DNA of 51,730 bases, taken from positions 1 through 51,730 of the IMG/VR virus record IMGVR_UViG_3300025678_000004, one strand, 5' to 3'. The translations under genes and the position numbers were made by a program. A model generated the notes under the pieces. That model did not search any database. It saw only the letters and a list, made by a program, of their open reading frames with translations, and had not been told where the DNA came from. Of this stretch, positions 1 through 48,587 are shown piece by piece; the first letter of the stretch is position 1, and each line of letters starts with the position of its first letter. Source of the DNA: a virus.

Positions 1-127
1 ATGCGAATACCTTCAACGTAACTTCCATCAGGAGCAAACGTACGAATTTTAACATATCCGTATTCCTGAACATACGGCCCAGGTTCAAGCACATACGGCT
101 GAACCATTATATCTGCAAAAACCTCAC
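1..127. repeat. Terminal direct repeat, left copy (identical to 51604..51730)
   Basis: Compared base by base: nt 1-127 equal nt 51604-51730. The length matches a common assembler k-mer, so the simplest reading is a circular-closure overlap. A true short DTR cannot be excluded. Confidence 0.95.
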
Positions 128-3399: not shown

Positions 3400-4155
3400 G
3401 TGTTAAATATGAGTTCCGTTGGAATCATTGCAAAATACTGGAACGAGGAAGTGCTCCTGCCACACTGGCTCAAATGGCTGAATCTTATAGATGCACGTGC
3501 CATCATTCTCGCAGATGACGGATCAACCGATGCATCAGCAAAAATATGCGAAGCATATACCCATAAATCAGCATTTGTGACAAACCTGTCAATAGATCAG
3601 CAAAAACAGGAATATTTCACCGAAACTATCCCTGAAGCCCAAAAAGTGAACGATCTGCTCGCACAGGCATATGATTTCGGGTGCGACTGGGTGTTGCATC
3701 TTGACATAGACGAGTTCCCAACGCTCCCCATGATACAGTATATTAACGAAGAACTTCCCCACATTCCACCAAACTATGGCATATATTTCCCGATATGCAA
3801 CATGTACAAATCGCTTGACGAGTTTATTATCCGGGACCTTATCACAAACCACCCGTATTATCCGGAACCGCACCTCAAAATATTCGGAAAAGAGTCAGGA
3901 TTTGTAAGAACAATAAACGGAATGGACCTTGACCAGGGAGTCACCGGTGGAAACCGGTATATCATGACATCGTTCCCATACATTCACCTCAAATATCTGT
4001 TCAGATTCAGACGATGGATGCGGTACACATCAATAGAAAATCAGACCAGACAGCCAATGGGAAATTTTGCAACCGCAACGTTCCCAAAAGAGATAATTCC
4101 AAAAGAAATCCGGGAATGGTGGATGGAATTCAAAGAACCAGGGCATCCCTGGTAA
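3400..4155 (+). CDS. Glycosyltransferase family 2-like (counter-oriented insert between TerL and portal)
   Basis: ILADDGSTDAS nucleotide-sugar binding motif and HLDIDEF (DxD). The likely true start is ATG 3409 (MSSVGII). A TATA-like TTTTATAT inside the palindrome AGGATTTTATATCCT lies about 30 nt upstream. Confidence 0.65.
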   Translation: MLNMSSVGIIAKYWNEEVLLPHWLKWLNLIDARAIILADDGSTDASAKICEAYTHKSAFVTNLSIDQQKQEYFTETIPEAQKVNDLLAQAYDFGCDWVLHLDIDEFPTLPMIQYINEELPHIPPNYGIYFPICNMYKSLDEFIIRDLITNHPYYPEPHLKIFGKESGFVRTINGMDLDQGVTGGNRYIMTSFPYIHLKYLFRFRRWMRYTSIENQTRQPMGNFATATFPKEIIPKEIREWWMEFKEPGHPW

Positions 4156-4156
4156 T

Positions 4157-5581
4157 TTACACCTCTATCACGCCTCCATACCGTCTTATTTTCTCATGTT
4201 CAGCCGTTCCGAACGCATCCTCAAACGGGTCATCAGCATATGCATCACTAGAAGTATCATACATAGCATCCCGAAGCCAGTCAAACACAGTTCCGTCATC
4301 ATATTCATCCTTTAAAATCACCTCGCCCGGCTTTCCGGAGAACTGTTCGTCATACTCTTCCTGGGTCAGATCTGACTCAAATCCCCCAAGACAGAGCGCA
4401 ACACCACCGTTCATCCCATAATTCATGAGCATAAGAGCACACACCTGATCATCAAAAAACCCTTTCGGAGCCCCGTATTTTATATTCCCCGAATCGGTCT
4501 GGGTATATGTAAACGATTCAAGTTCCTCACGAAGAGAGGGATCAGGCGGGATGAAAATCTCACAGTTATGAAATGCAATCGAAAGCCGTTTTACCAGTTC
4601 CTTCTTGCTTTCCATCGTAAACTTATAACTTACAACATTCACCCCGTCTTTCTCAAGATCTTCCTGAATTGCATCCCCCACTCCGGTAGTGTCCAGAAAC
4701 ACCGGCGGGCGTCCGTACCGCTCATACACATCCCGCACCCGCATTTTTATATACGCCCATGCGGTCCGGTTGAACCGTTCTGAGTACACCAGTTCCTTTG
4801 TGGTAGTGTCCCCGACGTGGATAACTGTAAAATCCTGGTGTCTTCCGAGATCCACCCCCATAACATAGATTCTACCCGGCACGTACTCTGGGGAAATATT
4901 ATAACGCACGCAAGAGTCAATATTTTTAAAAACAGTTCCACCATCTGACAGAAATATTGCAAGAATTTCCTGTTCATACTCAAGCTCCGACAAATCCTGA
5001 ACAATCTCTTCAAGTTCCTCACGTTCCAGAAACGGGTTATCATACGACGAAAAGGTAAAACTCTCCCATTTTGGGTTATATGTCGGACTTCCTTTCTTCC
5101 CCTTCATATACAACTTGTAATACCAGTTCTTTCCACGCGGAGTTGTACAAAAAAGGGCCCATCCAAGTTTGTCCATCAGTGCCGGACGAATGACTTTAAA
5201 CCATGCATCCGGATGAACCATCGCAGCTTCATCCAAAACCACTCCGTCAAGCCCTTCCCCACGCAGGTTGTCGTATTTTTCAGCCGATTTTGCCCAGATT
5301 GTGGCCCCGTTCTTCAGTTCTATGCACAATTTTCCAAGATAAATATCTTTTATATACTTTTTTGGCAGTAATTTAAGCACCATCCGCCACATGATGTCAG
5401 TCTGGGGGAACGTCGGGGCCACAATCCAGTATATCCCACCAGGCTTTGAAAGTGCCGAGACAATCACTTTTGTGGCTCCAAACCACGATTTTCCAAACCT
5501 ACGGCCGCAATTCAGGCATATAAACCTCGCTTTCGAGTTATATACCTTCATCTGGTTCTCATGCAGCCCGATTTCAAGCAT
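4157..5581 (-). CDS. terL: Terminase large subunit
   Basis: Walker A CGRRFGKS and Walker B VVLDEAA, plus C-terminal RNase H-like nuclease acidic motifs (GVDLGRHQDFTV, FLDTTGVGD, DDQVCALM). 474 aa. Confidence 0.9.
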   Translation of the reverse strand: MLEIGLHENQMKVYNSKARFICLNCGRRFGKSWFGATKVIVSALSKPGGIYWIVAPTFPQTDIMWRMVLKLLPKKYIKDIYLGKLCIELKNGATIWAKSAEKYDNLRGEGLDGVVLDEAAMVHPDAWFKVIRPALMDKLGWALFCTTPRGKNWYYKLYMKGKKGSPTYNPKWESFTFSSYDNPFLEREELEEIVQDLSELEYEQEILAIFLSDGGTVFKNIDSCVRYNISPEYVPGRIYVMGVDLGRHQDFTVIHVGDTTTKELVYSERFNRTAWAYIKMRVRDVYERYGRPPVFLDTTGVGDAIQEDLEKDGVNVVSYKFTMESKKELVKRLSIAFHNCEIFIPPDPSLREELESFTYTQTDSGNIKYGAPKGFFDDQVCALMLMNYGMNGGVALCLGGFESDLTQEEYDEQFSGKPGEVILKDEYDDGTVFDWLRDAMYDTSSDAYADDPFEDAFGTAEHEKIRRYGGVIEV

Positions 5582-5590
5582 AAATCAGCC

Positions 5591-6202
5591 CTACATATCA
5601 CACACAACCGGTTCAACCGGTGTGCTCGGGTCAAGTTTTACGAATATCGTCTTCTTTTCGTTCGGGAGTTTGAAATCCCCGATACGCAGTTTTGCCTTTG
5701 TCTCATCGACAACGGGCGAATTAAACAGCGAATCTGGGTTTTCATCCAGTTCTTTCTCAAGTTTCCGCACAATCCGCTCGTCCGGGTCCTTCTTTCCTGC
5801 ACGTTTCACAATGGAAACATCGATTTTTGCAGGTGCAACCTCCTCGTCCGCAGACACCTGAATCTTCTTTGTATCAACCTTAAACGACCGGTCAATTTTC
5901 AGGATTGTCTCGATGTATGTTATCATATCATCCGGGTTATTCTTCAGGTTCAGCGTTCGGGCAAGGTTAAAAAGCAGTTCTGTTGCCTCTGCTTTTAATC
6001 CCTCGCGCCCCCGGAGATAGAGATTCACAAATCTGCGCCGCTGGTCTTCGGGAAGCAGTAAAAGCACACACGGAGCAGTATTCGTGTCAGATCTGTCACA
6101 CACCGGGCATACCATATAATAATTGCATTTGCACGAGCAATAAGGGATTTTTGCAAGTTCCCGGTCAACCTGCTGGTAAAAATCCACGTTCATATCAATC
6201 AC
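5591..6202 (-). CDS. Putative terminase small subunit / DNA-recognition protein (N-terminal Cys cluster)
   Basis: 203 aa ending 9 nt upstream of the TerL start. It has an N-terminal CSCKC...CPVC cluster and a charged C-terminal half. The function is assigned by position only. Confidence 0.35.
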   Translation of the reverse strand: MIDMNVDFYQQVDRELAKIPYCSCKCNYYMVCPVCDRSDTNTAPCVLLLLPEDQRRRFVNLYLRGREGLKAEATELLFNLARTLNLKNNPDDMITYIETILKIDRSFKVDTKKIQVSADEEVAPAKIDVSIVKRAGKKDPDERIVRKLEKELDENPDSLFNSPVVDETKAKLRIGDFKLPNEKKTIFVKLDPSTPVEPVVCDM

Positions 6203-6217
6203 TATACCAATTTACCT

Positions 6218-6236
6218 TCAGGTATAAATATATATG
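6218..6236. promoter_or_regulatory. TATA-like element in a 58-bp divergent intergenic region
   Basis: TATAAATATATAT lies about 32 nt upstream of the histone ATG (6261) and about 27 nt upstream of the divergent minus-strand ATG (6202). This spacing is compatible with leaderless or short-leader archaeal transcripts in both directions. Confidence 0.4.
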
Positions 6237-6260
6237 ACCGTATTTCAAAATACATAACCT

Positions 6261-6482
6261 ATGGCACGAAGAAAAACCGTATTGCCAATTGCAGCAGTCG
6301 CAAGAATCGCACATGTAAAAGATGGCATCAGAGTCGAAAAAGGAGCGATTGAACTTGCAATTGCTGATGTTGAAGCCTCAATAAAAGACCTCTTCAACGG
6401 AGCATATCAGTTTACCGAACACAGGGGCGGAACGATGATTATGAAGAAAGATGTAGAAGCATACCTAGCATCAATTCAATAA
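6261..6482 (+). CDS. Archaeal histone-fold protein (HMf-like)
   Basis: 73 aa that aligns by eye to HMfB: LPIAAVARI vs LPIAPIGRI, RVE..A vs RVS..A, and the C-terminal EHRGGTMIMKKDVEAYL vs RHAGRKTIKAEDIELAV. It carries a short basic N-terminal extension, MARRKT. Confidence 0.8.
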   Translation: MARRKTVLPIAAVARIAHVKDGIRVEKGAIELAIADVEASIKDLFNGAYQFTEHRGGTMIMKKDVEAYLASIQ

Positions 6483-6483
6483 C

Positions 6484-6490
6484 TTTTTTT
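6484..6490 (+). terminator. Oligo-T tract after the histone gene
   Basis: A T7 run starts 2 nt after the stop codon, which is an archaeal-type terminator signal. Confidence 0.45.
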
Positions 6491-6659
6491 ACTACAAATT
6501 CAATGTATTATATGCCGTGGTGATATGAGTGGGACATCAGACCATGACACCGCAGCAGCATGAACATTCCCTCTGTGTCGGATGTGCAGGAAACCTGAAA
6601 TACCTCGGAAAAGAGAACCAACCATAACTCATAATGCAAAACGGGGGTGGTGGGATGGG

Positions 6660-6890
6660 TCATCCCCGTTTTCTGGCCTTCTTACGCCTTAAATCCGTTC
6701 CAATCTCTCCAAGCACCTTTCTTTTATGCTTTTCAATGAAATCGACACCAAGCAGCCTGAAATGCAACTCACGGATGACATTCACCGCATGTTTTGCCTC
6801 TTCAAATGACTGCACCGGGGCAGCAGCCCGGCGGATATCAAGCAGGATCGAATTGAACTGCTCAAGCGCACTGTCATCCCCCATTACCAC
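6660..6890 (-). CDS. Hypothetical protein (helical, basic C-terminus)
   Basis: 76-aa ORF on the dominant strand, coupled to the upstream gene (7-nt overlap). A hairpin AACGGGG..CCCCGTT lies just downstream at about 6643-6675. Confidence 0.5.
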   Translation of the reverse strand: MVMGDDSALEQFNSILLDIRRAAAPVQSFEEAKHAVNVIRELHFRLLGVDFIEKHKRKVLGEIGTDLRRKKARKRG

Positions 6891-14105: not shown

Positions 14106-14116
14106 AGGTGAACATC

Positions 14117-16066
14117 ATGACAAATATTGTGAAGTTATGGAAAGAAAACCTGGACACCGCACACAAAGGCGAAATCATTGTATTGAAAGCAGAATACCCA
14201 AAGAAATCAAGTATAACAATCAACATCAATAACACACAGAAGGAATTATTTGATGAAATTGTAAAAGACCCGATACTCGCTGAAAATGCATTATATTCAG
14301 CGCTGATGGAAGGAAAATACATCCCGGGGTGGAATGGGTCAAAACACACAATTTCAATCAGATTCATCGGGTTCCCACAAAGAATCAAAGTAAAAGACCT
14401 GAACTCAAAGCACCTGGAAAAATTCACATCCATGAGAGTTGTCGTAAAGAAAATAAACAGTGTAAAACCAAGACTTGTGCATGCAGCATTCAAATGCAAC
14501 GCCTGCAAGGAAAAGATCACATATGTCCCTGTGGAAGAGGATGAAGTCGTTCCTCCGTCTGAAAAATGTCTCTGTGGTGGTAAATCATGGAGGTTCCTGC
14601 TCAGATCATCAATCAAAAAAGACTACCAGATCATCCAGGTCCAGGACCCTGCCGAAGACGGAGGAAGTTCAAAACCAGAGGTTCTCACAGTCAAACTCCT
14701 GGACGATTTATGTGGTAAAGTCCAGCCAGGAAACATCATAGTTATCAACGGTATCTATAGAGGCCAGCAGAAAAAACAGTCGGCCACATTAGATACCTAT
14801 CTGGATGCAAAATCCATTGAGATAACAAACAAAGACTTCAGCAAAATTGAAATCACAGAGGATGAAATTCGTGAATTCGAAGAACTTGCAAAAAATCCAG
14901 ATATATATGATATGTTATGGTCATCTATCGGATCAGTGGTCAAAGGATGGGAAGCAGTCAAACAAGCGATATTACTGCAGCTTCTTGGAGGGTGCGAGAA
15001 AATCACCGCGGATGGAGATCGCTTTAGGCCGGATTTCCACATCCTGTTATGTGGAGATCCATCCGTTGCTAAGTCAAAAATTCTCCGCTCTGCCTACAAC
15101 CTATGCCCCAGAGGTATTTATGCATCTGGCAAGGCTACATCAGCTGCTGGACTCACAGCGGCAGCCACAAAGGCATCAGACGGGGGATGGGAGATTGAGG
15201 CTGGTGCTGCCGTATTAGCAGACAAAGGCATGCTCATCATAGATGAGCTTGACAAAGTCGACAAGGAGGCAGTATCATCTCTCCATGAAATTCTTGAGGA
15301 ACAGATTCTCCATATCAACAAAGCAGGTATTAGTGCAGACCTTGCAACACGTGAATCCTGTCTTGCTGCAGCAAACCCGAAACGTTCACGATTTGACAAA
15401 TACCAGGACCTTGCATCCCAGGTTGCGTTCGCACCATCTCTTCTCTCACGGTTCGGTCTCATATTCCTCATGATTGACGAGCCGGACAAAACAAAAGACC
15501 GGGAGATTGCAAAGCACATCATCAACTCCCACCGGGGAGTGACTCATGAAAAACCAATTCCGATTGAGACCCTCCGGAAATACATTGCACATGCAAAACA
15601 GTCCTGTGAGCCGGAGATAACAGATGAAGCAGCACGGATGTATGAGGAGTATTATGTTAAAATAAGACATTCAAACGGAGAATCGACTATCCCTATAACA
15701 CCCAGGCAGATTGAGGATATCATCAGGATGTCAGAAGCCAGTGCAAAGACACGGCTGTCAAAATATGTTGAGCCGGTTGATGTCAGCCGTGCCATATGGA
15801 TATACGAACAGGCAATGAGAATGACTGCAACAGACCCGGGGACCGGGTCCATTGATGTGGATAAGATAACCGGAGGGATGTCATCATCAGCACGGGAAGG
15901 AATGGCAGAACTCAAGAAGTTGCGGTCTGAATTCTTTGAACAGTTCGAAAAATGGCCGTCAAAAAAGGAACTAAAAGATTATGCAATGCAGAAAGGAATG
16001 TCTGAATCATCAGCAGCATACCTTACCCGCGAATTGTGGAAAGAGATGGGACTGAATGCATATTAA
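14117..16066 (+). CDS. mcm: MCM replicative helicase
   Basis: Zn motif CNACKEK...CLCGG; Walker A LLCGDPSVAKSKIL; Walker B LIIDELDK; sensor AAANPKRSRFD; arginine finger LLSRFGLIF. AAGGTGA lies upstream of ATG 14117, and the tracked GTG 14108 lies inside that Shine-Dalgarno motif. Confidence 0.92.
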   Translation: MTNIVKLWKENLDTAHKGEIIVLKAEYPKKSSITININNTQKELFDEIVKDPILAENALYSALMEGKYIPGWNGSKHTISIRFIGFPQRIKVKDLNSKHLEKFTSMRVVVKKINSVKPRLVHAAFKCNACKEKITYVPVEEDEVVPPSEKCLCGGKSWRFLLRSSIKKDYQIIQVQDPAEDGGSSKPEVLTVKLLDDLCGKVQPGNIIVINGIYRGQQKKQSATLDTYLDAKSIEITNKDFSKIEITEDEIREFEELAKNPDIYDMLWSSIGSVVKGWEAVKQAILLQLLGGCEKITADGDRFRPDFHILLCGDPSVAKSKILRSAYNLCPRGIYASGKATSAAGLTAAATKASDGGWEIEAGAAVLADKGMLIIDELDKVDKEAVSSLHEILEEQILHINKAGISADLATRESCLAAANPKRSRFDKYQDLASQVAFAPSLLSRFGLIFLMIDEPDKTKDREIAKHIINSHRGVTHEKPIPIETLRKYIAHAKQSCEPEITDEAARMYEEYYVKIRHSNGESTIPITPRQIEDIIRMSEASAKTRLSKYVEPVDVSRAIWIYEQAMRMTATDPGTGSIDVDKITGGMSSSAREGMAELKKLRSEFFEQFEKWPSKKELKDYAMQKGMSESSAAYLTRELWKEMGLNAY

Positions 16067-24457: not shown

Positions 24458-25075
24458 TTACAATTTATAATGCCCTTTTAACTGGCATATTGCAAGCCCA
24501 AGGCGGATTGATATGGTGTTTCCCTGACCTCCGATGATATTTGATGAATACCCGGTTATAAGCACCGGATATGCACGGGACGATAACAGAAGAATTAGCG
24601 GAGACTGCCTGCATTCCTCCTTAATAAGGGATTTTGTTGTTCTCAAATCCTCTATAATAATATCCCTGCTATAGGTCTGTTTTGTCTGCCCCTGTGTTCC
24701 AGTTGACATGGTTACCATTCCAAGCCCGTCAAACCACACTCCTGCTATGGTGATGGTTCCGGATTCAACAAACCCAATATCCCATCCTATCTGCAGTTCT
24801 TCAGGCAGTGGGATGAGTATGGGGGATGCAGTAAACCCCTTGTCAACAGACTGGATACCCCCGCGATAAATGCACGACGTGTCTGATGACTGCTCTGTTT
24901 CAGTGAGGTCTATCGCTTCAAAGGTGTAATCATTTACCCCTGCAACTTTGAACTGCCCCCTTACTTCAGGGTCGCTCACCCCATTTGCAGGGACAAACCC
25001 AAGTGCAAGCGTCCCTTCTTTTGATGCAGGATATTTCCCACTCTGCCATGTGTATTCATACCATCCTCCCGGCAT
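24458..25075 (-). CDS. Distal tail protein (Dit-like) by position
   Basis: 205 aa. The start overlaps the TMP stop (ATGA-type coupling), which is the canonical post-TMP position. Confidence 0.4.
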   Translation of the reverse strand: MPGGWYEYTWQSGKYPASKEGTLALGFVPANGVSDPEVRGQFKVAGVNDYTFEAIDLTETEQSSDTSCIYRGGIQSVDKGFTASPILIPLPEELQIGWDIGFVESGTITIAGVWFDGLGMVTMSTGTQGQTKQTYSRDIIIEDLRTTKSLIKEECRQSPLILLLSSRAYPVLITGYSSNIIGGQGNTISIRLGLAICQLKGHYKL

Positions 25076-28000
25076 CAGTAACTCACCTGCACACCGCTTG
25101 TTTTACCCATTGTCGTAAGCCATTGCACAAACTGCTGGAACAATGCATATGGGTCAGAGTTAGACATTTCAACTGATATCTGATTTATTGTTGGTTGCTT
25201 TAACTTTTCGTCTATTGATGTGAGTTTGTTTAGAATCGCTGTATCCTGCGGTTTTGTTGGTTCTGCCTCAAGCCGCTGTATCTCGCGGCCCTGCAACCAG
25301 TTGTATGTTCCTTTGAACACTTCTCCAAACAACCCGTATTTTCCTTCAAGCGGACGGTTTGCAATCTCGTGGGATTTTATGACTTCCCCGGCAAGCCCCG
25401 GGATCTCCCCCGATTCTATGTATTTCATAATGCCAGGAATTCCCCCGACTATATCAGATACAGCAGCACCGGCCATACCAAGCGGTCCCATCCCGGCAGA
25501 CAACGCTGTAGAAACCCCTACTCTTATACCGCCCTCAACCATTTCATTATCACGGAGTCCGGGGATATAGTTCGCCGGTGACAACGGTCCCTTTCCTCTT
25601 GTAACCGCATGCCCGACGGCCTGCCCGAAATCCGGTGCAACAAACCCGCCCAGAAACTGGGCGGTATATGGAGCACTTGCTGCAATAACATTGAACCCCA
25701 TCTGGGCTGCACCCGCAAGTGCAGCTGACTTTGCTATCTCAAGCGGGTCCCCGGATTCCATTCCCCCAAGGACGCCTCCAAGAAGGGTCATTCCAGGGAC
25801 CCCTTTCATTAGTTCCTTTCCGTATCCGATGATGCGCTCAGGAAGGGATTTTGGTTTTTCTGCACGGAGCCGTTCTTCTTCTTTTAATCCGGACTCGCGT
25901 TTCAACTCTTCCGGTCTGATCTCTTCCCTGCCTTTATCCATCATCTCCCGGTATCTGTCACGTGCCCGTGCCCGGCGTTCCTTCTCACTCTCAATGAGTT
26001 TGTCATCCCGGAGCCGGTCTCCTTCCTTTGGTTTCCCCGGTTCTGCTGCAGCCTCTTTTGGTTTGAACAGGTCTTTGAACCAGTCCCACATCCCTTTCAG
26101 GGTGTCAATTGCTTTCTGAAGAAGTCCCTTTCCGGCATCAAGAATCCCCCTGATTGTGTTCATAAGTCCCTGTGCAACAGCACCAAACCCCTGGGTCCAT
26201 GCATATATCCCTGCTACAGCAACACCAATCGGGATAAGCGGAGCAAGTCCACCCACAAGTCCAAGCAGTTGTGCAGTTGCAACGGTCCGGAGTGCCCTGA
26301 ACCCTCCTTCAGACACCCCACTGACCATCTGGTTCCCACGTTCAATGGTCCGCCTGAGCATCTCAATACCGCGTCCTGCAACGGCCCCTATTGCAAGTGC
26401 AGGTGCAAGTGGGGCTATCATAGCCCCCACCATCTTTGAGACCATTCCAAGGCCCCCTACGATGCTCTGGGCGATGTCTGTGGACATGATGGTACCATAC
26501 ATGCTCATGATGTTCCCGATGACACCACCCGCCCCTCCGATTATACCACCGTCAGCATAATGGGGAATATCGCGTTTTGATATGACAACCTCCCCTGGAG
26601 TGAGCATGGCAAGAACAGAATCGGTATTCCCTACTCCGGGAACCACACCTCCCCGGCTGAACCGTCTGGCCGGTTTTGTAACTGTGGTCTCCCCTGCTTT
26701 TACAGGGACGGCTGTTCCTTCAATGTTCACATAGAAATCCGGTTCCGGCTTCTCACCTGATGCAAGAAGGGTTCCTCTGCGAAGCATCCTCCCCCTGTAT
26801 GCCATTGTGGGTTCTGACTCTTCTGTTGTTGCAAGAGGAGCGGGCGTTGGTGGCTTTGGCGGAACGACCCGCTCTTTCATTACATTGACAAAATCGTTAA
26901 TGGCACTGGTCATATGCCTTATAGACTCCGGGATCTTTCCCATTGCCTTGAGCCACTGATATGTCTCATAAATGGTTTTTCCAATAACCAGTGCACCGAT
27001 TGCAAATATAGGGGGGAACTGGCGGACGATGTTTCCGATGTTTACCAGTCCTTTTACAACAGGACCTATATAGGGAATGATCGGCATCAGGAACATGTCT
27101 GAAATGTATCCGATTCCTTTGCCGATTGCTTCATGGGTCTTGTTATAGACCTTTGATGTCTGCCCGAATATACGCATGACGTGGGCTGCAATGAGGTATG
27201 ACGTGGTTGCACCACGGATAGACCTGAGATAGTTCTTCCGTGCCTGGTCCTCCTTCTCAAGCAGTTTCCAGTATCCTTTTGGTGCGGCAGATTCCCAGTC
27301 CATCCCGCTCCGTTCTGCTTCAAGTACCCGCTCTGAATACTGCCGCTCTTTTCGTTTCATCTGGATGGGGAGCCCTATGATAGGCAGCCGTTCTGCGATC
27401 CGCTGCCAGCCTTTCGGATGGGGGAGTTCACTCAGATACAGTTCACGGAACAGTTTCTCATAATCCGGTTCGGTTGGAGCACCTTCTTCTTCTGCAGCAA
27501 CAGCCGCCCGGCGGCTCTTCTTTGCACCACTGTCACCATACTGTGTGACCTGTATCTTAATACCATTAAACCATGACTCAAACTTTGACATCGTCGGCTG
27601 ACACAGGTCAACCCCGCGACATTTCCCTGATGGTCGTGGTTTTGCCGGGGATTTTCTGATTGCAGCATCAATATCATCAGAATTTATAATAGAATCGGGA
27701 ATCCCACGCGGGTGAGACGAGGGAAACAGCCAGTCTCCGGCACGAGGTTCTTTCTGTGGAGTTCCGGATGATGGTGGGGTTGACGCGGGGGATTTGCGCC
27801 TGAACTCCGGTCCAGGAACCGTTTTCGGAACAAGGGCCTTTTCAATAGTATTGAATTTGTCCGCGAACCGCGGAACAGATTCAAACGATTTCCCTGCCTC
27901 TTCGAGAATGTTTAACAGTGCTATGGAGTCATTCCATAACATCGTGTCAAGATTCTTCCCGGTGTTGAGCAGTTTCTGGTTAAACCCAATTGGTTTTAAG

Positions 28001-31000
28001 TCCTGATATATCTTCCCAAACAGGTCTATCGTTGCGGCATCATCCTCAACACCGCCCATCGGGGCACCGGCAAGCATTGCAAGAGACTTGTCATTCCATC
28101 CTGCTGATTCGAGTTTGGATATGATGTTCTTGATGACCGGGTGTACTCCGGGCCCTGATGCAGATTCCCAGAGTTCGTGAAGCCGTTCGGTGAAGACTGC
28201 AAGTCGTGACGGGTTTTTATCCCAGGTCTCGTCCGGTGTGGGTCCTACCGCACCATATTTCGGGAACACTTTAGACAACGCACGGGCATGCCCGGGTGTG
28301 GTTGCACCGATCCCCTGTCGTTCATACCGCTCTTTTGATACGATGTCATAGATGCTTACCCGCCGGGATGCAAGATCAAACAACCGCATTGCAGCTGCAT
28401 CTTCTGCATTGTCCATCCCTGCTCCTTTGACCGGGCGTGGACCGAACATTTCATTGTATTTTGCGAGTTTCTTTTTCCATCCTTCAAACCCCTTTACAAG
28501 GTCCATCTCATGCGCACCGAGCGTGCTTAAATCACGGGTGACATTAATGACAAATCCTTTGACAGAATCCTGGAAGAAGTCTGCATATGCTGCAATCTGC
28601 TCTGCGAAGTCTGCATCAACCTTGCTGGAGGTCTTAAAGTCCGCAATGGTTGGAACAAGGTTGCCAGTAGCATCCCGGATGAACCCGGCTATGTCAAGAG
28701 TTCCGGAATACTTGTCCCTGGTGTTTACAAACCGCTCTTCAATGAGACTCGGGACAAACCCCATCTGATCTACAAGCTCGACAAACCTGTCCGCAATATC
28801 TTTCCCTGTTTTGATAATATCATCAATGGAATGGAGCGTGCCCTGTAAATCTTTTGAAGGGGAAATATCAGGGAACTTCACGTGAGATGTGTCGATTTCA
28901 TACTTCTTCCCAAGCGCCTGTGCGGCATAATAGTGGGCGACACTCCCCACATGCCCATAATACTCCCCGCCGTTGTATACCTTCCCCAGATTTTTAATCT
29001 TGGTTACAGAAGGCCATATTTCTCCGGTGACCGGGTCAACATAATCATGTTCATCCGGTTGTGCTTCGCGGGTAACATTGCGGGCATGTGATGCAAGTGG
29101 GAGCGTCCCCTCGGCCAAAAACCGCAGATGTTTGTTTGGAATCACATCGAATCCTCCTCCCGGGCGAGACACCAGCAGTTCCGGCCCGGCTTCACCTACT
29201 ACTGCGTTTTCACCAGGTTTTAACTTTCCGCCCGTTGCAAGTGCACGGAACCGCATTCCGGCAAACTCTTTTGGAAGGGCCCCAGGATTATATCGTTCGA
29301 TAGTAATGTTTGATGGAATCTCCCCGTGGAACACTTTCATGAGGTATGAACCAAATGCCACTGAACCCGCCGGGCGGGTAGTCTTTGATGGAACCCATAT
29401 AATTTTGCATGGTTTCGTTCCGATGGATTCGATCAGTTTGTTCACCTGCGAAATCCCGGACGGGGACAGATACGCCTCATCAAAAAACGCAAGCACTTCA
29501 TCAGACGAGTTTATCACATCTGCCGTGGTGTAATCCTTCTGATACTGCTTCCCGCTTTTTCTGGAAAGCCATTCCACACGTGCCGGAATCTTGTACTGGA
29601 ACGTGCCGGTATGATGTGCCCAGTTGGATGCCTGGTATGCAGCACCAAAACTGGTATCGTTCAGTCCCTTGCCAACTTCGGTGGAGGTTATCATCACATT
29701 GTTCGGGTCCCAGTATTTGCTGAAGTACTTCCGCATGAACGGTTCGTTGTCCCATGACTTTGATCCGACAATACCAACCCGTTTCACCCCGGGGAGTTCG
29801 ACCTCTCCTTTGGCAACGCGTTTTACAATATCTTCAGTTTCCTGGGGGAGGTCTGCTATCTTCAGTCCGAACCTGTCACGGAACTTTGATACCACCCGCA
29901 TAAGGCGGTCATCCTGGGTAACGTGCTGATACAGTCCGCGAAGAGAGTGTTTTGGAGAGAATGGTTTTATCTCGTCTTTCTCAACCGCAATCTTCCGTTC
30001 ATACCGTTCAAGCCCGCGGGTATACGAATCAATCTCTGCCTTTAACTGTGCCTTGTCGGCACCATACGTCATGATAAGTTCGTCTGCCTTCTCAAACGGG
30101 ATACCGGCTTCATGGAACGCCCGGCCATAATACCTGCCATATCGTGAGATATAATTTGCACGGACATCTTCATGCTCGGTCATCCGTTCAAGATACCAGT
30201 CGTGGTATACCTGATGCAACTGGGACTGTGCCTCCCGTGCAGTTGCAGCAACCACATACGGGCTGTATAACCGGGTTGTATACTCAGTAATAAGATCCGG
30301 CCCAGCATCGATATATTTCCGGTACTTCTTCTCAAGTTCTTTTGACCAGTTTCCATACTCCTCTTCAGCGGTAGGACTTGAGAAATCGGCCATCTCAGAC
30401 TCAAGGTATTCAGCAGCGGATTTGAACGAGTACCCCCCTTCATCAGAGTCTTCCAGGTACCGTGGCAGATGTGTCCTGAAACTGTCACCAGACCACTTTG
30501 CACGGATTGTAGTGGGCTTGCCTATACCAGATATAGGGTATGATGAAATAATCGAATCCAGATACTCCTGTGACGCTCTGGTGAGAAGTCTGGGTCTTCG
30601 CCTAAGCCCCCCTCCCAGTCTGGCATCAGTACTCCTCCCTGTCTTCTTCCGTGCAAACAGGTGGGCAGCAGTCTGAACCTCGCCGACAAACTCTTTCATT
30701 GAGTCGTCAACAATATCGTGTGGGGATATACCAAGCCGTTTTAATGCAGTCTGGACTATCGGAGAGTTCATCCTGGACGGTGTTGTCTGATACTTCTCAA
30801 TTATTTCAAGTGCGTCAATGGTTTTTTGCAGGTCTTCTTTGCTTACCGGGGAGATGTATGCGTTGGTGCTGCTTACCTCCCGTTTCTTCATCCGTTTCAG
30901 ATCGTCTGCAAGAATGTCATCAAGACGCGGGGCAATATAACTGGTCAGGTTTCCTCCCGACCATTTATCAAAAAGATGTGCAATAACAATGTCACGGGCA

Positions 31001-31530
31001 GAAAGGATCTCCTTGTTTGAAAGGCTTTCCAACTCCTCTTTGGTAAGGAAAGACCCTAACTTACGACGGAGGGTTTTAGAGCCTACTCCTTTGAATCTGC
31101 CTGTCGTGCTGGTAAGGTAATCGGTGATACCTTCTACTATCCGGGGATTAACGTGGGGGAACTTCCGGCCGATATCACGTTTTATCTCGGCCATTGATTT
31201 GGGGTCAAGTACCCGTCCCCGGCCCACGGCCTGGGACTGGTAATGAATAACACGGGCAGCATCCTGCAACACCCCGCGGGGAAGTGTGATCGGGTCTCCC
31301 GGGTTTGTTGCAATCTCCTTTAACTGTTTCACAATAGAAACAGTCTCGCGAAATGCTGCCTGTCTTACAGGAGAGTCAGGATCACCACCGGAACGGATCT
31401 CATTCCGGATGACATCATACATCTTAATGACCTGTTCTTTTGACTCAACAGACAATTGAGAGAACTTCCGGCCAAAAACCCGGTATGAAATCTCATCCCT
31501 GCTTGGATACCTGACTGACATAGTGCCCAC
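25075..31530 (-). CDS. Tape-measure protein with embedded SLOG-like and PD-(D/E)xK nuclease modules
   Basis: 2151 aa in the canonical position after tube and chaperone. TMP hallmarks: GGKLKPGENAVVGEAGPELLV, GGVVPGVGNTDSVLAMLTPGEVV, and long Gly/Ala-rich hydrophobic helices. aa ~583-712 contain RVGIVGSKSWDN...SSDEVLAFFD. aa ~828-1000 contain PSVTKI, GSVAH, GTLDIAG, IADFKTS and QIAAYADF. An ATG at 31521 is an alternative start. Confidence 0.8.
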   Translation of the reverse strand: MGTMSVRYPSRDEISYRVFGRKFSQLSVESKEQVIKMYDVIRNEIRSGGDPDSPVRQAAFRETVSIVKQLKEIATNPGDPITLPRGVLQDAARVIHYQSQAVGRGRVLDPKSMAEIKRDIGRKFPHVNPRIVEGITDYLTSTTGRFKGVGSKTLRRKLGSFLTKEELESLSNKEILSARDIVIAHLFDKWSGGNLTSYIAPRLDDILADDLKRMKKREVSSTNAYISPVSKEDLQKTIDALEIIEKYQTTPSRMNSPIVQTALKRLGISPHDIVDDSMKEFVGEVQTAAHLFARKKTGRSTDARLGGGLRRRPRLLTRASQEYLDSIISSYPISGIGKPTTIRAKWSGDSFRTHLPRYLEDSDEGGYSFKSAAEYLESEMADFSSPTAEEEYGNWSKELEKKYRKYIDAGPDLITEYTTRLYSPYVVAATAREAQSQLHQVYHDWYLERMTEHEDVRANYISRYGRYYGRAFHEAGIPFEKADELIMTYGADKAQLKAEIDSYTRGLERYERKIAVEKDEIKPFSPKHSLRGLYQHVTQDDRLMRVVSKFRDRFGLKIADLPQETEDIVKRVAKGEVELPGVKRVGIVGSKSWDNEPFMRKYFSKYWDPNNVMITSTEVGKGLNDTSFGAAYQASNWAHHTGTFQYKIPARVEWLSRKSGKQYQKDYTTADVINSSDEVLAFFDEAYLSPSGISQVNKLIESIGTKPCKIIWVPSKTTRPAGSVAFGSYLMKVFHGEIPSNITIERYNPGALPKEFAGMRFRALATGGKLKPGENAVVGEAGPELLVSRPGGGFDVIPNKHLRFLAEGTLPLASHARNVTREAQPDEHDYVDPVTGEIWPSVTKIKNLGKVYNGGEYYGHVGSVAHYYAAQALGKKYEIDTSHVKFPDISPSKDLQGTLHSIDDIIKTGKDIADRFVELVDQMGFVPSLIEERFVNTRDKYSGTLDIAGFIRDATGNLVPTIADFKTSSKVDADFAEQIAAYADFFQDSVKGFVINVTRDLSTLGAHEMDLVKGFEGWKKKLAKYNEMFGPRPVKGAGMDNAEDAAAMRLFDLASRRVSIYDIVSKERYERQGIGATTPGHARALSKVFPKYGAVGPTPDETWDKNPSRLAVFTERLHELWESASGPGVHPVIKNIISKLESAGWNDKSLAMLAGAPMGGVEDDAATIDLFGKIYQDLKPIGFNQKLLNTGKNLDTMLWNDSIALLNILEEAGKSFESVPRFADKFNTIEKALVPKTVPGPEFRRKSPASTPPSSGTPQKEPRAGDWLFPSSHPRGIPDSIINSDDIDAAIRKSPAKPRPSGKCRGVDLCQPTMSKFESWFNGIKIQVTQYGDSGAKKSRRAAVAAEEEGAPTEPDYEKLFRELYLSELPHPKGWQRIAERLPIIGLPIQMKRKERQYSERVLEAERSGMDWESAAPKGYWKLLEKEDQARKNYLRSIRGATTSYLIAAHVMRIFGQTSKVYNKTHEAIGKGIGYISDMFLMPIIPYIGPVVKGLVNIGNIVRQFPPIFAIGALVIGKTIYETYQWLKAMGKIPESIRHMTSAINDFVNVMKERVVPPKPPTPAPLATTEESEPTMAYRGRMLRRGTLLASGEKPEPDFYVNIEGTAVPVKAGETTVTKPARRFSRGGVVPGVGNTDSVLAMLTPGEVVISKRDIPHYADGGIIGGAGGVIGNIMSMYGTIMSTDIAQSIVGGLGMVSKMVGAMIAPLAPALAIGAVAGRGIEMLRRTIERGNQMVSGVSEGGFRALRTVATAQLLGLVGGLAPLIPIGVAVAGIYAWTQGFGAVAQGLMNTIRGILDAGKGLLQKAIDTLKGMWDWFKDLFKPKEAAAEPGKPKEGDRLRDDKLIESEKERRARARDRYREMMDKGREEIRPEELKRESGLKEEERLRAEKPKSLPERIIGYGKELMKGVPGMTLLGGVLGGMESGDPLEIAKSAALAGAAQMGFNVIAASAPYTAQFLGGFVAPDFGQAVGHAVTRGKGPLSPANYIPGLRDNEMVEGGIRVGVSTALSAGMGPLGMAGAAVSDIVGGIPGIMKYIESGEIPGLAGEVIKSHEIANRPLEGKYGLFGEVFKGTYNWLQGREIQRLEAEPTKPQDTAILNKLTSIDEKLKQPTINQISVEMSNSDPYALFQQFVQWLTTMGKTSGVQVSY

Positions 31531-42616: not shown

Positions 42617-42849
42617 ACCTGAATAAACGAAACCGAAGTGCCAACAAGCAAAGGCTCAATATCAACCGCACCAGGGTTGGATGAAACCAACCCCAAACAA
42701 TCCAAGTCGTCTGAAACCCCAATGTAATTAAAAGCGCCAGATTCTCCTGGTGTATGATACATCACATCGGAAATCAACATCGACTCTTCTAAAATTACAC
42801 GATTTGTTGAATATGGAAAATATGTCCCAAATCTACGTATAAATCTCAT
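42613..42849 (-). CDS. Hypothetical small protein
   Basis: 78 aa from MRFIRRFGTYFP. The ATG overlaps the stop of the S8-fibre gene (ATGA). Confidence 0.45.
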   Translation of the reverse strand: MRFIRRFGTYFPYSTNRVILEESMLISDVMYHTPGESGAFNYIGVSDDLDCLGLVSSNPGAVDIEPLLVGTSVSFIQV

Positions 42850-45398
42850 ACTAAAACATACACCCCCGTCACAGTTAAGCATTCCGCATTTCCATTTCCA
42901 CCAACATCTGTGGAAACTTCAATTGAAGCACCATATGGAACATTATAATTGGCTGTAGAAATGTCAACAACCGTGTCAACCCATGCGGAGTCGGACGTTC
43001 GTCTCCCGGCATTTGAGTTCGCCGTGCATACCGGCAACCCATTTACTAACAAATTTATTGCCGGTTGTGTAGCACCGGTATCCCCGGCATTACATACATG
43101 CGATATCTGGACCAGCTTCGCATCGCCAAGCATCCATCTAAATCGCGTTTTCATAAAATGTCGGAGCAAATTTGTTCGAGCCTCACCATTAAACACCCCA
43201 TTTATATACAAATCGACATGTGCAACCCGGCTTGCATCACACACTGCAAGTTCCTGTATCGTTCCAGACAACGGTGCTCCTGCAATTCCAATCACACTTG
43301 ACGTCAGATCACGGATTATACCATAATACCACACCCCACCAATCTTGTACTTTATCCCCATGCCTTTCTGGAGAACAGAGGTAAGATTTGCAACAGTTGT
43401 TATAGATGATGTGCTCGCAGGAGTTGCAACATACTGAACCGATGCAACCCGCAACCAATAATTCACCTGGGTCCCAGTAAACTCAAGAAACGCATTCCCC
43501 CCTGCATCCTGGGTCATATTAATATTTATTCCGCCTCCGGCAGGGGCAACAAGCTTGTTCAGAAGATAGTCCGCAGATGCATCCCCACTATATATCTTCG
43601 CTTTCCCACCAAGATCCGCCGGGGTATATATCGTCGGTTTGTTCCTGATGAATGCATCAGAATTTACATCCGTTTCATTCCAATCGGCCTGAACATTCTT
43701 TTCAGCATCAGAAGGAGCATGCTGACTCGTCGCATGATCGTATGCAAATTTCCCACGATCCCCGCGGTATGCAGTATCACTCGTCTCCCCAAGCGTTGCA
43801 GGAAACGTGTTCGGCTTGTCTATGATGTTCCCCCAGCACACCGATGAAGAACTGTTCAGGATAATATCATACGTAGTTTCATCACGCCACACAAGCCAGT
43901 CACCAGGAAGAACTCCGGTCTCACCAATATACCCGGCATGAGAAATAACATAATATTTCCCCTGCTCACCTGGAGGCAGAGGGTTTGCAGGATTATAAAG
44001 CCCGGCATATGTTAACGCCCCAACCACGCTCGAAGGGAGATAGTCAGATTTTATTTTCCCTGCAGAATCTAGAATTGAAAGCGAAAACTCGTGATTATTT
44101 AACGTGAGCCCGGTACCTGCGGTATACCCCTCAGAATCTATCTTTGCCCACACACCGCCTTTTCTGGCATAATACTCATCCGTAGCAACATCCCGCACCG
44201 CACACTGCTTTTTAATTCCAAGAACGACCGTGGGGTCATCTATAAGCCCGGACAACGCCTTATATGCATTCACGCGGCCACCGGTTGCACATTTCCCGGA
44301 CAATGCCGGGATGATATCAACACCATTCAATATCCGTGTCCGTATCTGCTGGGCTGTCAGTTCCGGGAATGCCCCTTTCAGAAGAACTGCAATTCCAGTA
44401 ACCATCGGAGCAGCCATTGACGTGCCGGACAACCACACATATGAGTTCCCGGTCAGTGTACTGCAGATATTTGTACCCGGAGCAGCTACATGAACACTCG
44501 CAGCACCATAGTTAGACTGAGCATTTAACTGATCCTTGTTATTGGTATTACAAACCGAAATGATATTATTAAATCCAAGAGATGCTGGATATACCGGGGT
44601 CGAATCATTGTTATTTGCATCATTTCCTGCAGCACACACAAACAGCACCCCAGGCATACTCGCAATCTTATCGGCAACCGCCTGAGAGAACGAATAACTC
44701 CCAAACGACATATTAACAATATGACACCCCATCATCTCAGCATGGTCAAGCCCATACAGCACAGAGGTATCTGTTGCCTGCATACTTGACCCAAGCGATT
44801 TTATCGGGTATATCCGGCATGACCATGCAACACCACATACTCCCTGCCCATTATTCCCTTTCGCTCCAATTATCCCTGCAACATGCGTCCCGTGATCCCC
44901 ATCATCCATCGGATCAGAATCCATGTTGTAAAAATCAAATCCATCCGCTTTTTTACAGTTATCAGACAAATCCGGATGATTATAATCAACCCCGGTATCA
45001 ATAACCCCAACCTTTACCGACGTGCTCCCAATCGGCTTTCCAGCCTCATACAGCAACCGCCATGCATACGGTGCACCAATATCTGCTCCGGCAGTCCCTC
45101 CGTTCTGCCCCTGGTTAAAGAGCCCCCACTGGTTCCCGGCCTGATAATACGGGTCATTCGGGTGGTATGGCGTCGGTAAAAACCCGGTATAAATGTGGTC
45201 GGGTTGTGCAAACTCAACCAGCCCCGATTTATTCAGGGCGTCAACCTCATCAAGTACAGGAGAATCCTCAAAGGAGATTACAGTAATATCTCCTATTGCA
45301 TCTACAATTTCCGCTCCAGCCACAACCGCACGGATATCATCTATAGACACCCCGGGCTTCAGTTTTGCAAGGAGCCTTCCTTCAACATATTCTGCCAT
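42846..45398 (-). CDS. Subtilisin-like (S8) serine protease fused to tail-fibre modules
   Basis: It has an I9-like propeptide at the N-terminus and the catalytic triad blocks VGVIDTGVDYNHPDL (Asp), DHGTHVAGIIGA (His) and SGTSMAAPMVTGIAVLL (Ser). The C-terminal ~450 aa carry fibre-type motifs (WGNIIDKPNTFPATLGETSDTAY, NSDAFIRNKPTIYT). Confidence 0.85.
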   Translation of the reverse strand: MAEYVEGRLLAKLKPGVSIDDIRAVVAGAEIVDAIGDITVISFEDSPVLDEVDALNKSGLVEFAQPDHIYTGFLPTPYHPNDPYYQAGNQWGLFNQGQNGGTAGADIGAPYAWRLLYEAGKPIGSTSVKVGVIDTGVDYNHPDLSDNCKKADGFDFYNMDSDPMDDGDHGTHVAGIIGAKGNNGQGVCGVAWSCRIYPIKSLGSSMQATDTSVLYGLDHAEMMGCHIVNMSFGSYSFSQAVADKIASMPGVLFVCAAGNDANNNDSTPVYPASLGFNNIISVCNTNNKDQLNAQSNYGAASVHVAAPGTNICSTLTGNSYVWLSGTSMAAPMVTGIAVLLKGAFPELTAQQIRTRILNGVDIIPALSGKCATGGRVNAYKALSGLIDDPTVVLGIKKQCAVRDVATDEYYARKGGVWAKIDSEGYTAGTGLTLNNHEFSLSILDSAGKIKSDYLPSSVVGALTYAGLYNPANPLPPGEQGKYYVISHAGYIGETGVLPGDWLVWRDETTYDIILNSSSSVCWGNIIDKPNTFPATLGETSDTAYRGDRGKFAYDHATSQHAPSDAEKNVQADWNETDVNSDAFIRNKPTIYTPADLGGKAKIYSGDASADYLLNKLVAPAGGGININMTQDAGGNAFLEFTGTQVNYWLRVASVQYVATPASTSSITTVANLTSVLQKGMGIKYKIGGVWYYGIIRDLTSSVIGIAGAPLSGTIQELAVCDASRVAHVDLYINGVFNGEARTNLLRHFMKTRFRWMLGDAKLVQISHVCNAGDTGATQPAINLLVNGLPVCTANSNAGRRTSDSAWVDTVVDISTANYNVPYGASIEVSTDVGGNGNAECLTVTGVYVLV

Positions 45399-48300: not shown

Positions 48301-48587
48301 CCGCCTATCCCACCGGAAGGGTTTGAACCAAACGCCGATTCCGAATATATTGTGGATTCGCCTGTAGAAATATTCTCAACGGTTATTGATTTTGTACGAA
48401 ACCCGTTCGGAAGATCATATCCTCCAGAAGAAAAAGCAGCCCGACTCGGGCGGGATTTAATATATAAATTCCCGCCCGGGGAAACAAGAACCTCCCCCTC
48501 ATTATCAACAAAATTTACTGTGTTGCACACCTCACAATTATTTCCAAACACATCGCGTGTCCGTTTAATTATGTTTACCTTATACAT
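45399..48587 (-). CDS. Tail fibre with two collagen-like Gly-X-Y segments
   Basis: 1062 aa. [37 protein letters not shown] is encoded at 46311-46421, and [46 protein letters not shown] at 46029-46166. Fibre motifs are also present ([44 protein letters not shown]). Confidence 0.85.

Follow-up and report, generated by a model that had tools for sequence, protein, structure and literature searches.

A full-length histone with a rebuilt L2 loop, encoded by a core gene of an uncultivated tailed archaeal virus

We analysed a 73-residue histone-fold protein encoded beside the packaging genes of the viral record IMGVR_UViG_3300025678_000004, whose 51,730 nucleotides, taken as a whole, are referred to here as the window. 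An earlier annotation of this locus, made from the letters alone (the sequence-only reading), had proposed the protein as an HMf-type archaeal histone carried on an autonomous cassette. The gene lies on the plus strand, with a TATA element in front of it and two hairpins behind it:

6223..6235, no strand assigned: TATA element TATAAATATATAT shared between the divergent genes, its sole exact match in the window
6261..6482, plus strand: histone-fold gene of 73 amino acids with an ATG start, based on the open reading frame (ORF), Pfam, AlphaFold, Foldseek and the ratio of nonsynonymous to synonymous substitution rates (dN/dS)
6484..6491, plus strand: T-rich element TTTTTTTA, recognised by its positional conservation in relatives
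6513..6557, plus strand: candidate kink-turn-like hairpin RNA, based on covariation and a covariance model
6638..6672, no strand assigned: perfect 9-bp convergent-junction hairpin, AAAACGGGG...CCCCGTTTT, from reading of the sequence; a scan found its inner hairpin and T-run

The protein begins MARRKTVLPIAAV and reads in full MARRKTVLPIAAVARIAHVKDGIRVEKGAIELAIADVEASIKDLFNGAYQFTEHRGGTMIMKKDVEAYLASIQ. Its histone fold, which the sequence-only reading had proposed, is established from profile searches and structural modelling. Taken singly, the sequence gives a marginal match to PF00808 (CBFD_NFYB_HMF; 21.9 bits against a cut-off of 21.4, E 2e-4) and no significant histone match among PDB sequences. 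As a family of 15 members the signal is clear: PF00808 and PF00125 are matched by 11 of the 15, and every match listed for the 15-member profile in the PDB is a histone-fold protein, led by HPhA (E 1.6e-6) and HmvA (5e-4) and followed by HMfA and H3, with the full fold aligned gaplessly. Similarly, an AlphaFold model built on the 15-sequence alignment, which replaced a four-sequence run at a predicted local distance difference test score (pLDDT) of 56, reached a pLDDT of 89.4 and placed three helices at residues 10-17 (alpha1), 27-55 (alpha2) and 62-72 (alpha3). When this model was compared with the PDB by Foldseek, the top matches were all histone folds, with template modelling (TM) scores of 0.73-0.87 normalised to the query. 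NF-YB was the best of them (TM 0.83-0.87); HPhA was matched too, and HMfB was matched at TM 0.78 (0.83 when normalised to the target) with 26% identity over 66 columns. In a viral structure library the best matches were giant-virus histones. Indeed, the alignment to HMfB runs along the whole length without a gap, as had been claimed, with 17 of 66 positions identical by manual count, and the two proteins have in common LPIA, R10, R19-V20, A24, H49, G51, D59 and E61 (HMfB numbering).

A short frame on the opposite strand to its immediate neighbours, with a marginal single-sequence Pfam score, might also be a chance ORF or a decayed gene without function. However, dN/dS between the histone gene and its homologues is 0.03 for close pairs and 0.09-0.5 for distant ones, which identifies a coding gene under purifying selection, and the gene is kept in all relatives, with a confident fold and profile matches to solved histones; the chance-ORF explanation is thereby refuted, and we give it practically no weight. 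The family is tiny, comprising three clusters at 90% identity among 5.8 billion proteins searched and 13 representatives at E<=1e-3 among 1.84 billion, and it stands apart from cellular histones. The annotation pipeline of the Joint Genome Institute (JGI) labels some of the relatives "histone H3/H4". Isoelectric points (pI) range from 7.8 to 10.1 across the family, that of the window protein being 9.2. The short basic N-terminal extension (MARRKT, 5 residues) that had been pointed out is present and is conserved as a pattern M-x-K/R-K-T. True tails are uncommon in archaeal-type histones. Two distant members, L037 865..1137 and L038 47..370, carry basic tails of about 22 and 45 residues, and their long start sites are supported by TATA spacings of 20 and 23 nt.

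What kind of histone this is can be read from individual residues. We mapped the 15 members to HMfB numbering by the gapless alignment and took our criteria from PMC6136690, PMC13260811 and PMC7776873. The arginines that contact the minor groove are kept, as R15 and R24-V25 for HMfB R10 and R19-V20, and Arg or Lys stands at both HMfB positions 10 and 19 in 11 of the 15 members (P0008, P0011, P0013 and P0015 are each without one). The tetramer contact is kept as well, as H54 and D64 for HMfB H49 and D59, with His at position 49 in 12 of the 15. It is the L2 loop that has been rebuilt: HMfB reads H-A-G-R-K-T in this block and the viral histone H-R-G-G-T-M, so that the H.GG.T motif, which had been offered as a likeness to HMf, marks exactly where the protein departs from it. 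HMfB R52 is replaced by G57 and A50 by R55, both invariant in the family, while K53 has become Thr or Ser in most members (T58) and T54 a nearly invariant Met (M59). The RKT(V) motif of L2, as defined in PMC13260811, is therefore missing, the window protein reading G57-T58-M59-I60. The arginine of the R-D clamp, which invariably lies seven residues before the alpha3 Asp, is missing too: D64 is kept, but position 57 is Gly, and the invariant Arg, R55, stands nine residues upstream. The sequence-only reading had named loss of key DNA-contact residues as the sign of a non-DNA-binding derivative, and on this point the outcome is divided, with the R10 and R19 equivalents kept and positions 53, 54 and the clamp Arg replaced.

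The surfaces on which archaeal histones oligomerise have changed as well. At the dimer-dimer interface H54 and D64 remain, and L46 and L62 have become F51 and A67 throughout the family. Hypernucleosome stacking needs a small residue (Gly) at position 16 and the pairs K30-E61, E34-R65 and R48-D14 (PMC6136690). Position 16 is Asp in the window protein; across the family it takes one of D, E, K, P, T or S and never Gly. The stacking positions of the window protein are occupied by A35, A39, A70, E53 and V19, so that none of the three pairs is possible in it. With the NCBIfam model NF043032 (archaea_histone) the score is 16 bits, where the cut-off stands at 50. The label "HMf-type" thus holds for fold and alignment and fails for the family cut-off, the RKT motif, the clamp Arg, Gly16 and the stacking pairs; the viral histone is a full-length, three-helix histone that belongs neither to the canonical HMf-type nor to the alpha3-truncated class.

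The missing stacking determinants bear on one proposed role, the poisoning of host chromatin, in which mixed heterodimers or heterotetramers would stop or destabilise host hypernucleosomes and so open or shut the host genome. Once inside a host fibre, a unit with a bulky residue at position 16 and no stacking pairs would offer no surface for further stacking, and cellular capstone variants offer a precedent (PMC7776873). Moreover, the histone diverges faster than its neighbours: identity across relatives is 51-62% for the histone, 74-82% for the terminase and 81-86% for the portal, a pattern common in host-interaction genes. However, capstones are marked by a position 49 that is acidic or hydrophobic, whereas the window protein and most members have His there, as given above, and an identity of about 25% to canonical histones together with Phe/Ala for Leu/Leu in the bundle argues for self-association. 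Poisoning through heterodimers, which the sequence-only reading had raised, is accordingly a role that we consider unlikely.

The genes around the histone are arranged as follows:

5591..6202, minus strand: divergent neighbour of 200 amino acids (from ATG 6193) or 203 (from GTG 6202) with a Cys-rich N-terminus, based on the ORF and on gene calls in relatives
4157..5581, minus strand: large terminase, T4-type, based on the ORF and a family match
3400..4155, plus strand: family-2 glycosyltransferase between the portal and terminase genes

The divergent neighbour is the first gene of an operon running into the large terminase, and the genes on both sides of the histone (5591..6202, 4157..5581, and 6660..6890 onwards) lie on the minus strand. 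That the histone opposes all surrounding genes, as had been stated, is nevertheless incorrect, since the glycosyltransferase is also on the plus strand. The divergent neighbour had further been called a small terminase; this identity has its position in its favour and no other support, no significant match being found in Pfam, PHROGs, NCBIfam or PDB sequences.

The arrangement of these genes is strikingly constant. Portal, terminase and the 200-residue gene on the minus strand, followed by the histone on the opposite strand, form the same run in 21 of 21 loci reached through the histone (L001-L021), including the 51-kb contig L020, whose histone is only 44% identical. To avoid circularity we also reached relatives through terminase alignments, and all 14 viral contigs found in this way carry the histone, 13 of them already known and one new (L029), in which it occupies the expected place and orientation. 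Therefore, the histone is a core gene and not an accessory insert. The glycosyltransferase, present on the plus strand at this place in most loci reached through the histone, is missing in L011 and L018 and thus behaves as an accessory insert, unlike the histone. The description as an autonomous cassette is accordingly right in that the histone forms a separate, counter-oriented transcription unit, and wrong in that this unit is a fixed core gene with a TATA element common to the packaging operon rather than a mobile insert.

Two side observations concern the packaging genes of relatives. In L008 (4848..7349, minus strand), L009, L010, L012 and L013 the large terminase has 833 residues and contains an insertion of about 360, which interrupts the Walker A motif (GRRFGK / ALDL...THN / TWF) and in which LAGLIDADG-like motifs are found; from these motifs it looks like an intein with a homing endonuclease, and the window terminase is without it. 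In L011 (2493..5285) the portal match is broken by about 980 bp, possibly another inserted element.

Because the histone gene adjoins packaging genes and has its promoter region in common with them, and because giant viruses of eukaryotes package histones (PMC11390915), its product might condense DNA in the virion and enter it together with the genome, as happens in Marseilleviridae. The protein shows no scaffold-like or head-targeting feature. In tailed viruses the terminase motor drives duplex DNA in naked form through the portal, whose narrow channel excludes DNA carrying histones. A role in the compaction of the genome in the capsid, the first that had been suggested, is therefore the least plausible of those proposed, and we think it very unlikely.

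Expression of the histone appears to start from the TATA element between the two divergent genes. Its centre lies 32 nt before the histone ATG, close to the figure first reported, and its end 25 nt before; several relatives have a perfect palindrome, ATATAAATTTATAT, at this place. All of 12 lineages compared have an AT-only element of 9-16 bp, whose end precedes the histone ATG by 20-25 nt in 11 of them and by 28 nt in L036. In the other direction, 10 lineages have the start of the divergent gene in their sequence, and in 8 of these the distance from the element to its ATG is, by manual count, about 27-31 nt, the exceptions being L037, at about 23 nt, and L036, with a shorter spacer of 50 nt. 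In the window itself the distance is 20 nt if the divergent gene starts at GTG 6202 and 29 nt if it starts at ATG 6193, and the spacer correspondingly 58 or 67 bp; of the first figures put forward, the 58-bp spacer holds for the GTG only and the distance of about 27 nt for neither start, and it is the ATG that gene callers use on near-identical contigs. Archaeal promoters have their TATA box centred near -26. No Shine-Dalgarno-like motif precedes the histone ATG, and scans for sigma-70 promoters and intrinsic terminators, signals without relevance to a virus of archaea, yielded nothing of use at the histone gene. Since the spacing fits archaeal promoters and a Shine-Dalgarno motif is lacking, the arrangement suggests leaderless transcripts leaving in both directions from a single shared element. 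The promoter that had been pointed out in front of the histone is thus well supported by the comparison of lineages. Being common to both divergent genes, this element also means that the histone gene is not independent of its neighbours.

The promoter it has in common with the packaging operon, together with the loss of the canonical L2 DNA-contact motif and NF-YB as the best structural match, would also fit a regulatory histone-fold factor of the NF-Y or TAF-like kind, acting at specific sites, for instance the shared promoter or the origin, and perhaps together with a partner protein. When the six-frame translation was searched with the profile, no second histone gene that could supply this partner was found, there being one per genome; the protein retains the minor-groove arginines and an overall basic charge, in which it resembles chromatin histones, and matches to a monomer fold do not separate histone classes. 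We regard such a factor as doubtful.

The reading of these features that we favour is a chromatin protein specific to the virus, which would assemble into short units on DNA within infected cells, a statement to which, taken whole, we give about an even chance. The histone would be transcribed as a short monocistronic mRNA, probably leaderless. With one histone gene in the genome, homodimers are expected unless the protein pairs with host histones; they are predicted to bind DNA through the minor-groove arginines R15 and R24 and the conserved basic N-terminal tail, as is argued by the kept arginines, the basic tail and the basic pI. The dimers are predicted to pair into tetramers through the contact between H54 and D64, this His-Asp pair having been kept. 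The changed packing of the bundle, with F51 and A67 for L46 and L62, may separate viral from host histones, since a Phe/Ala swap could keep the volume in a homotetramer and fit poorly on the Leu/Leu face of a host histone. Lacking the RKT loop, the clamp Arg, Gly at position 16 and the stacking ion pairs, the viral histone would bend or wrap only short stretches of DNA and build no long hypernucleosomes. Its most likely site of action is the infected cell, with replicating viral DNA or host DNA as the target, rather than the capsid, where compaction is unlikely for the reason already given that naked DNA is threaded through the portal.

Three points weigh against this proposal. Two of the four top DNA-binding residues (positions 53 and 54) are replaced, as is the clamp Arg, so that the protein may bind DNA weakly or no longer at all. 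As a monomer, its fold is no closer to HMfB than to transcription-factor subunits of the NF-Y type. Finally, dimer, tetramer and DNA binding are all predicted from residues, the structural model being that of a single chain.

Downstream, the histone gene is followed by a second conserved feature. Its stop codon (TAA, 6480..6482) is succeeded by a c at 6483 and a run of seven T at 6484..6490, which had been described as a terminator. The position of the run stands, and is conserved: a run of four to seven T lies 0-6 nt past the histone stop in all 12 lineages with sequence there. T-runs are themselves common in the window (67 matches to T6 against 62 expected), so the evidence is the positional conservation. 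In most relatives, however, the element reads TTTT(T)ATA(T), resembling an archaeal TATA box, and in the 11 lineages with the region on the contig it ends, by manual reading, 19-22 nt before the base of a hairpin, which is the spacing from the end of the TATA element to the histone ATG in the same genomes. From this resemblance and spacing, the T-rich element may be a terminator for the histone, a TATA box for a hairpin RNA, or both, and the terminator role first assigned to it may thus be accompanied or replaced by that of a promoter.

The hairpin itself consists of a 10-bp stem (6513-6522/6548-6557), a bulge AUAU (6523-6526), a G6527-A6528 that faces G6546-A6547, and a short upper stem. RNAalifold finds compensatory changes in 9 of 13 pairs; a cleaner alignment of seven sequences has 95.8% of its cells paired and two-sided changes at 8 of 14 pairs, and its covariation score was reached by none of 500 shuffles, with slid controls 23-62% paired. 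At every locus that includes the region, a covariance model detects the hairpin, always as a single copy in the genome; among these loci are L020 (E 1e-4) and L021 (E 2e-3), neither of which was used in building it; in L017, L019, L029, L036 and L038 the hairpin was identified by eye only. Thermodynamic z-scores are modest (-1.1 to -2.5), and the case for the hairpin accordingly rests on covariation and position. Two conserved G-U pairs identify the folded strand as the plus strand, that of the histone, and since these would be C-A mismatches on the other strand, a hairpin acting at the DNA level (pac or cruciform) was rejected.

Unpaired bases of the hairpin are invariant where its stems vary, with A-x-A-U-G-A on the 5' side and G-A directly against the stem on the 3' side. 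GA facing GA is invariant in the seven aligned sequences and was recognised by eye also in L019, L020, L021, L029 and L038, while L017 has AA for GA. A canonical stem, a bulge ending in U, GA facing GA and a second stem are the parts of a kink-turn, as found in the box C/D RNAs bound by L7Ae, and the 5' AUGAnG resembles box C as the 3' C/A-N-G-A against the stem resembles box D. Unlike a standard kink-turn, however, the viral hairpin has a bulge of 3 or 4 nt, mostly 4, in place of 3, and in L036 (640..705) the stem GTCGCACGG...CCGTGAGAC and the spacing from the T-run are kept while the kink-turn-like loop and upper stem are absent. Whether the name kink-turn-like hairpin RNA is deserved we therefore consider evenly balanced on these motifs. 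Rfam holds no family that matches the hairpin, nor any C/D family at E<=10. A box C/D guide sRNA was rejected, as C'/D' boxes and guide regions are missing and only 6-20 nt separate the C-like from the D-like box; the hairpin is thus not a methylation guide. It may be a small RNA of its own, started from the T-rich element, or else belong to the 3' end of the histone mRNA.

Beyond it, the convergent-junction hairpin overlaps the stop codon of the minus-strand gene 6660..6890, and a GC-rich hairpin stands at the equivalent junction in relatives; by its form and place it looks like a terminator readable in both directions. A longer structured RNA that would join the two hairpins was rejected, its middle part being unconserved, and a CRISPR-repeat-like reading of GAAAC motifs in relatives was dropped for want of repeats.

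A more ambitious idea would connect the two conserved features. A virus-specific lineage with a rebuilt L2 loop (HRGGTM, with a relocated Arg) and an altered packing of the four-helix bundle would form short chromatin units of its own, insulated from those of the host, and would be co-inherited with a kink-turn-like small RNA made from the T-rich element, the pair being a two-part module that organises DNA and engages the host L7Ae machinery. This we put forward as speculation with a small chance of being right.

The genome in which this locus resides is closed and complete, since the two ends of the window overlap exactly over 127 bp (1..127 against 51604..51730), leaving 51,603 unique bp. 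Further features of note are:

14108..16066, plus strand: MCM helicase, based on a family match
25075..31530, minus strand: ORF of 2151 amino acids without a Pfam match
42846..48587, minus strand: S8 subtilase beside a protein with collagen repeats and DUF2793

The window also encodes a portal protein, an XkdF-like capsid protease, tail genes and a collagen-repeat fibre protein, and the presence of portal, large terminase, capsid protease and tail genes in a closed genome identifies a virus. An archaeal host is indicated by the MCM helicase, the TATA promoters and the lack of Shine-Dalgarno sequences. The window thus represents an uncultivated tailed virus of archaea with its genome complete, and the viral origin taken for granted in the sequence-only reading is supported. 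Among deposited viruses the helicase matches only archaeal virus MCMs, at about 30% identity, and the best deposited match to the terminase, at 36%, is in a bacterial phage. No close relative was found among deposited phage and archaeal virus records, and no matching virus in the literature on methanogen viruses. A search of GTDB, with each species represented by one genome, gave no relatives of either the histone or the MCM. Searches of the window found no tRNA genes and no match to any Rfam family, and the ORFs scanned included no integrase.

Virus-encoded archaeal-type histones have already been reported, and the window histone is a distinctive variant rather than the first of its kind. With HMfB, HTkA and HPhA it shares the length class, the three-helix fold with a full alpha3, the gapless alignment, LPIA, R10, R19-V20, H49, D59 and the basic pI, and it differs from them in having G-T-M-I for RKT(V), the clamp Arg two residues upstream, Asp at position 16, no stacking pairs, F/A for L46/L62 and a basic extension of 5 residues. 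A survey of IMG/VR described archaeal-like or HMf-like histones in Caudoviricetes whose predicted hosts are Methanobacteriota (Liu et al., bioRxiv 10.1101/2024.12.06.627149). Those, like ours, are single histone-fold proteins of tailed archaeal viruses in IMG/VR, on whose contigs the relatives reported here are also found. Inclusion in the survey depended on an E-value below 1e-5 to HMf-type profiles, and the cluster is treated there only briefly (bioRxiv 10.1101/2024.12.06.627149); our family, with its marginal scores against such profiles, may lie outside the survey, which gives no account of a rewired L2 loop, of core-gene status, of a shared TATA element or of a downstream hairpin.

Other known histones resemble this one in part. 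The Borgs of Methanoperedens likewise carry histone genes on an archaeal mobile or virus-like element, but they are hundreds of kb long and encode several histones together with histone-modifying enzymes (PMC12660748), whereas here a virus of 51.6 kb has one histone, and no other histone-related genes were seen among the roughly 30 larger window ORFs scanned. The capstones of Methanobacteriales share the predicted failure to extend into long oligomers, but they are diagnosed by the loss of His49 (PMC7776873), whereas the viral histone keeps His49 and Asp59 and lacks the stacking features. Phage and alpha3-truncated histones are also histone folds from tailed viruses, but their alpha3 has 3-4 residues (PMC11390915), and phage histones bear a C-terminal tetramerisation helix, whereas the viral histone has an alpha3 of 11 residues and no extra domain. 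Earlier reviews of viral histones do not mention archaeal viruses.

What is new is therefore a virus-only family that combines a rebuilt L2 loop with core-gene status, a shared palindromic TATA element and a linked hairpin RNA, the last of which is a candidate viral RNA element in its own right. The family departs from the RKT and R-D clamp signature, which a 2026 survey found to be near-universal, and it thereby offers a natural experiment on which histone residues DNA binding and oligomerisation truly need. With only 73 residues the protein should be easy to express, making wrapping, oligomeric state and mixing directly testable. Research on archaeal chromatin has had almost no viral counterpart so far, and this histone would give a handle on whether archaeal viruses build chromatin of their own or tamper with that of their hosts.

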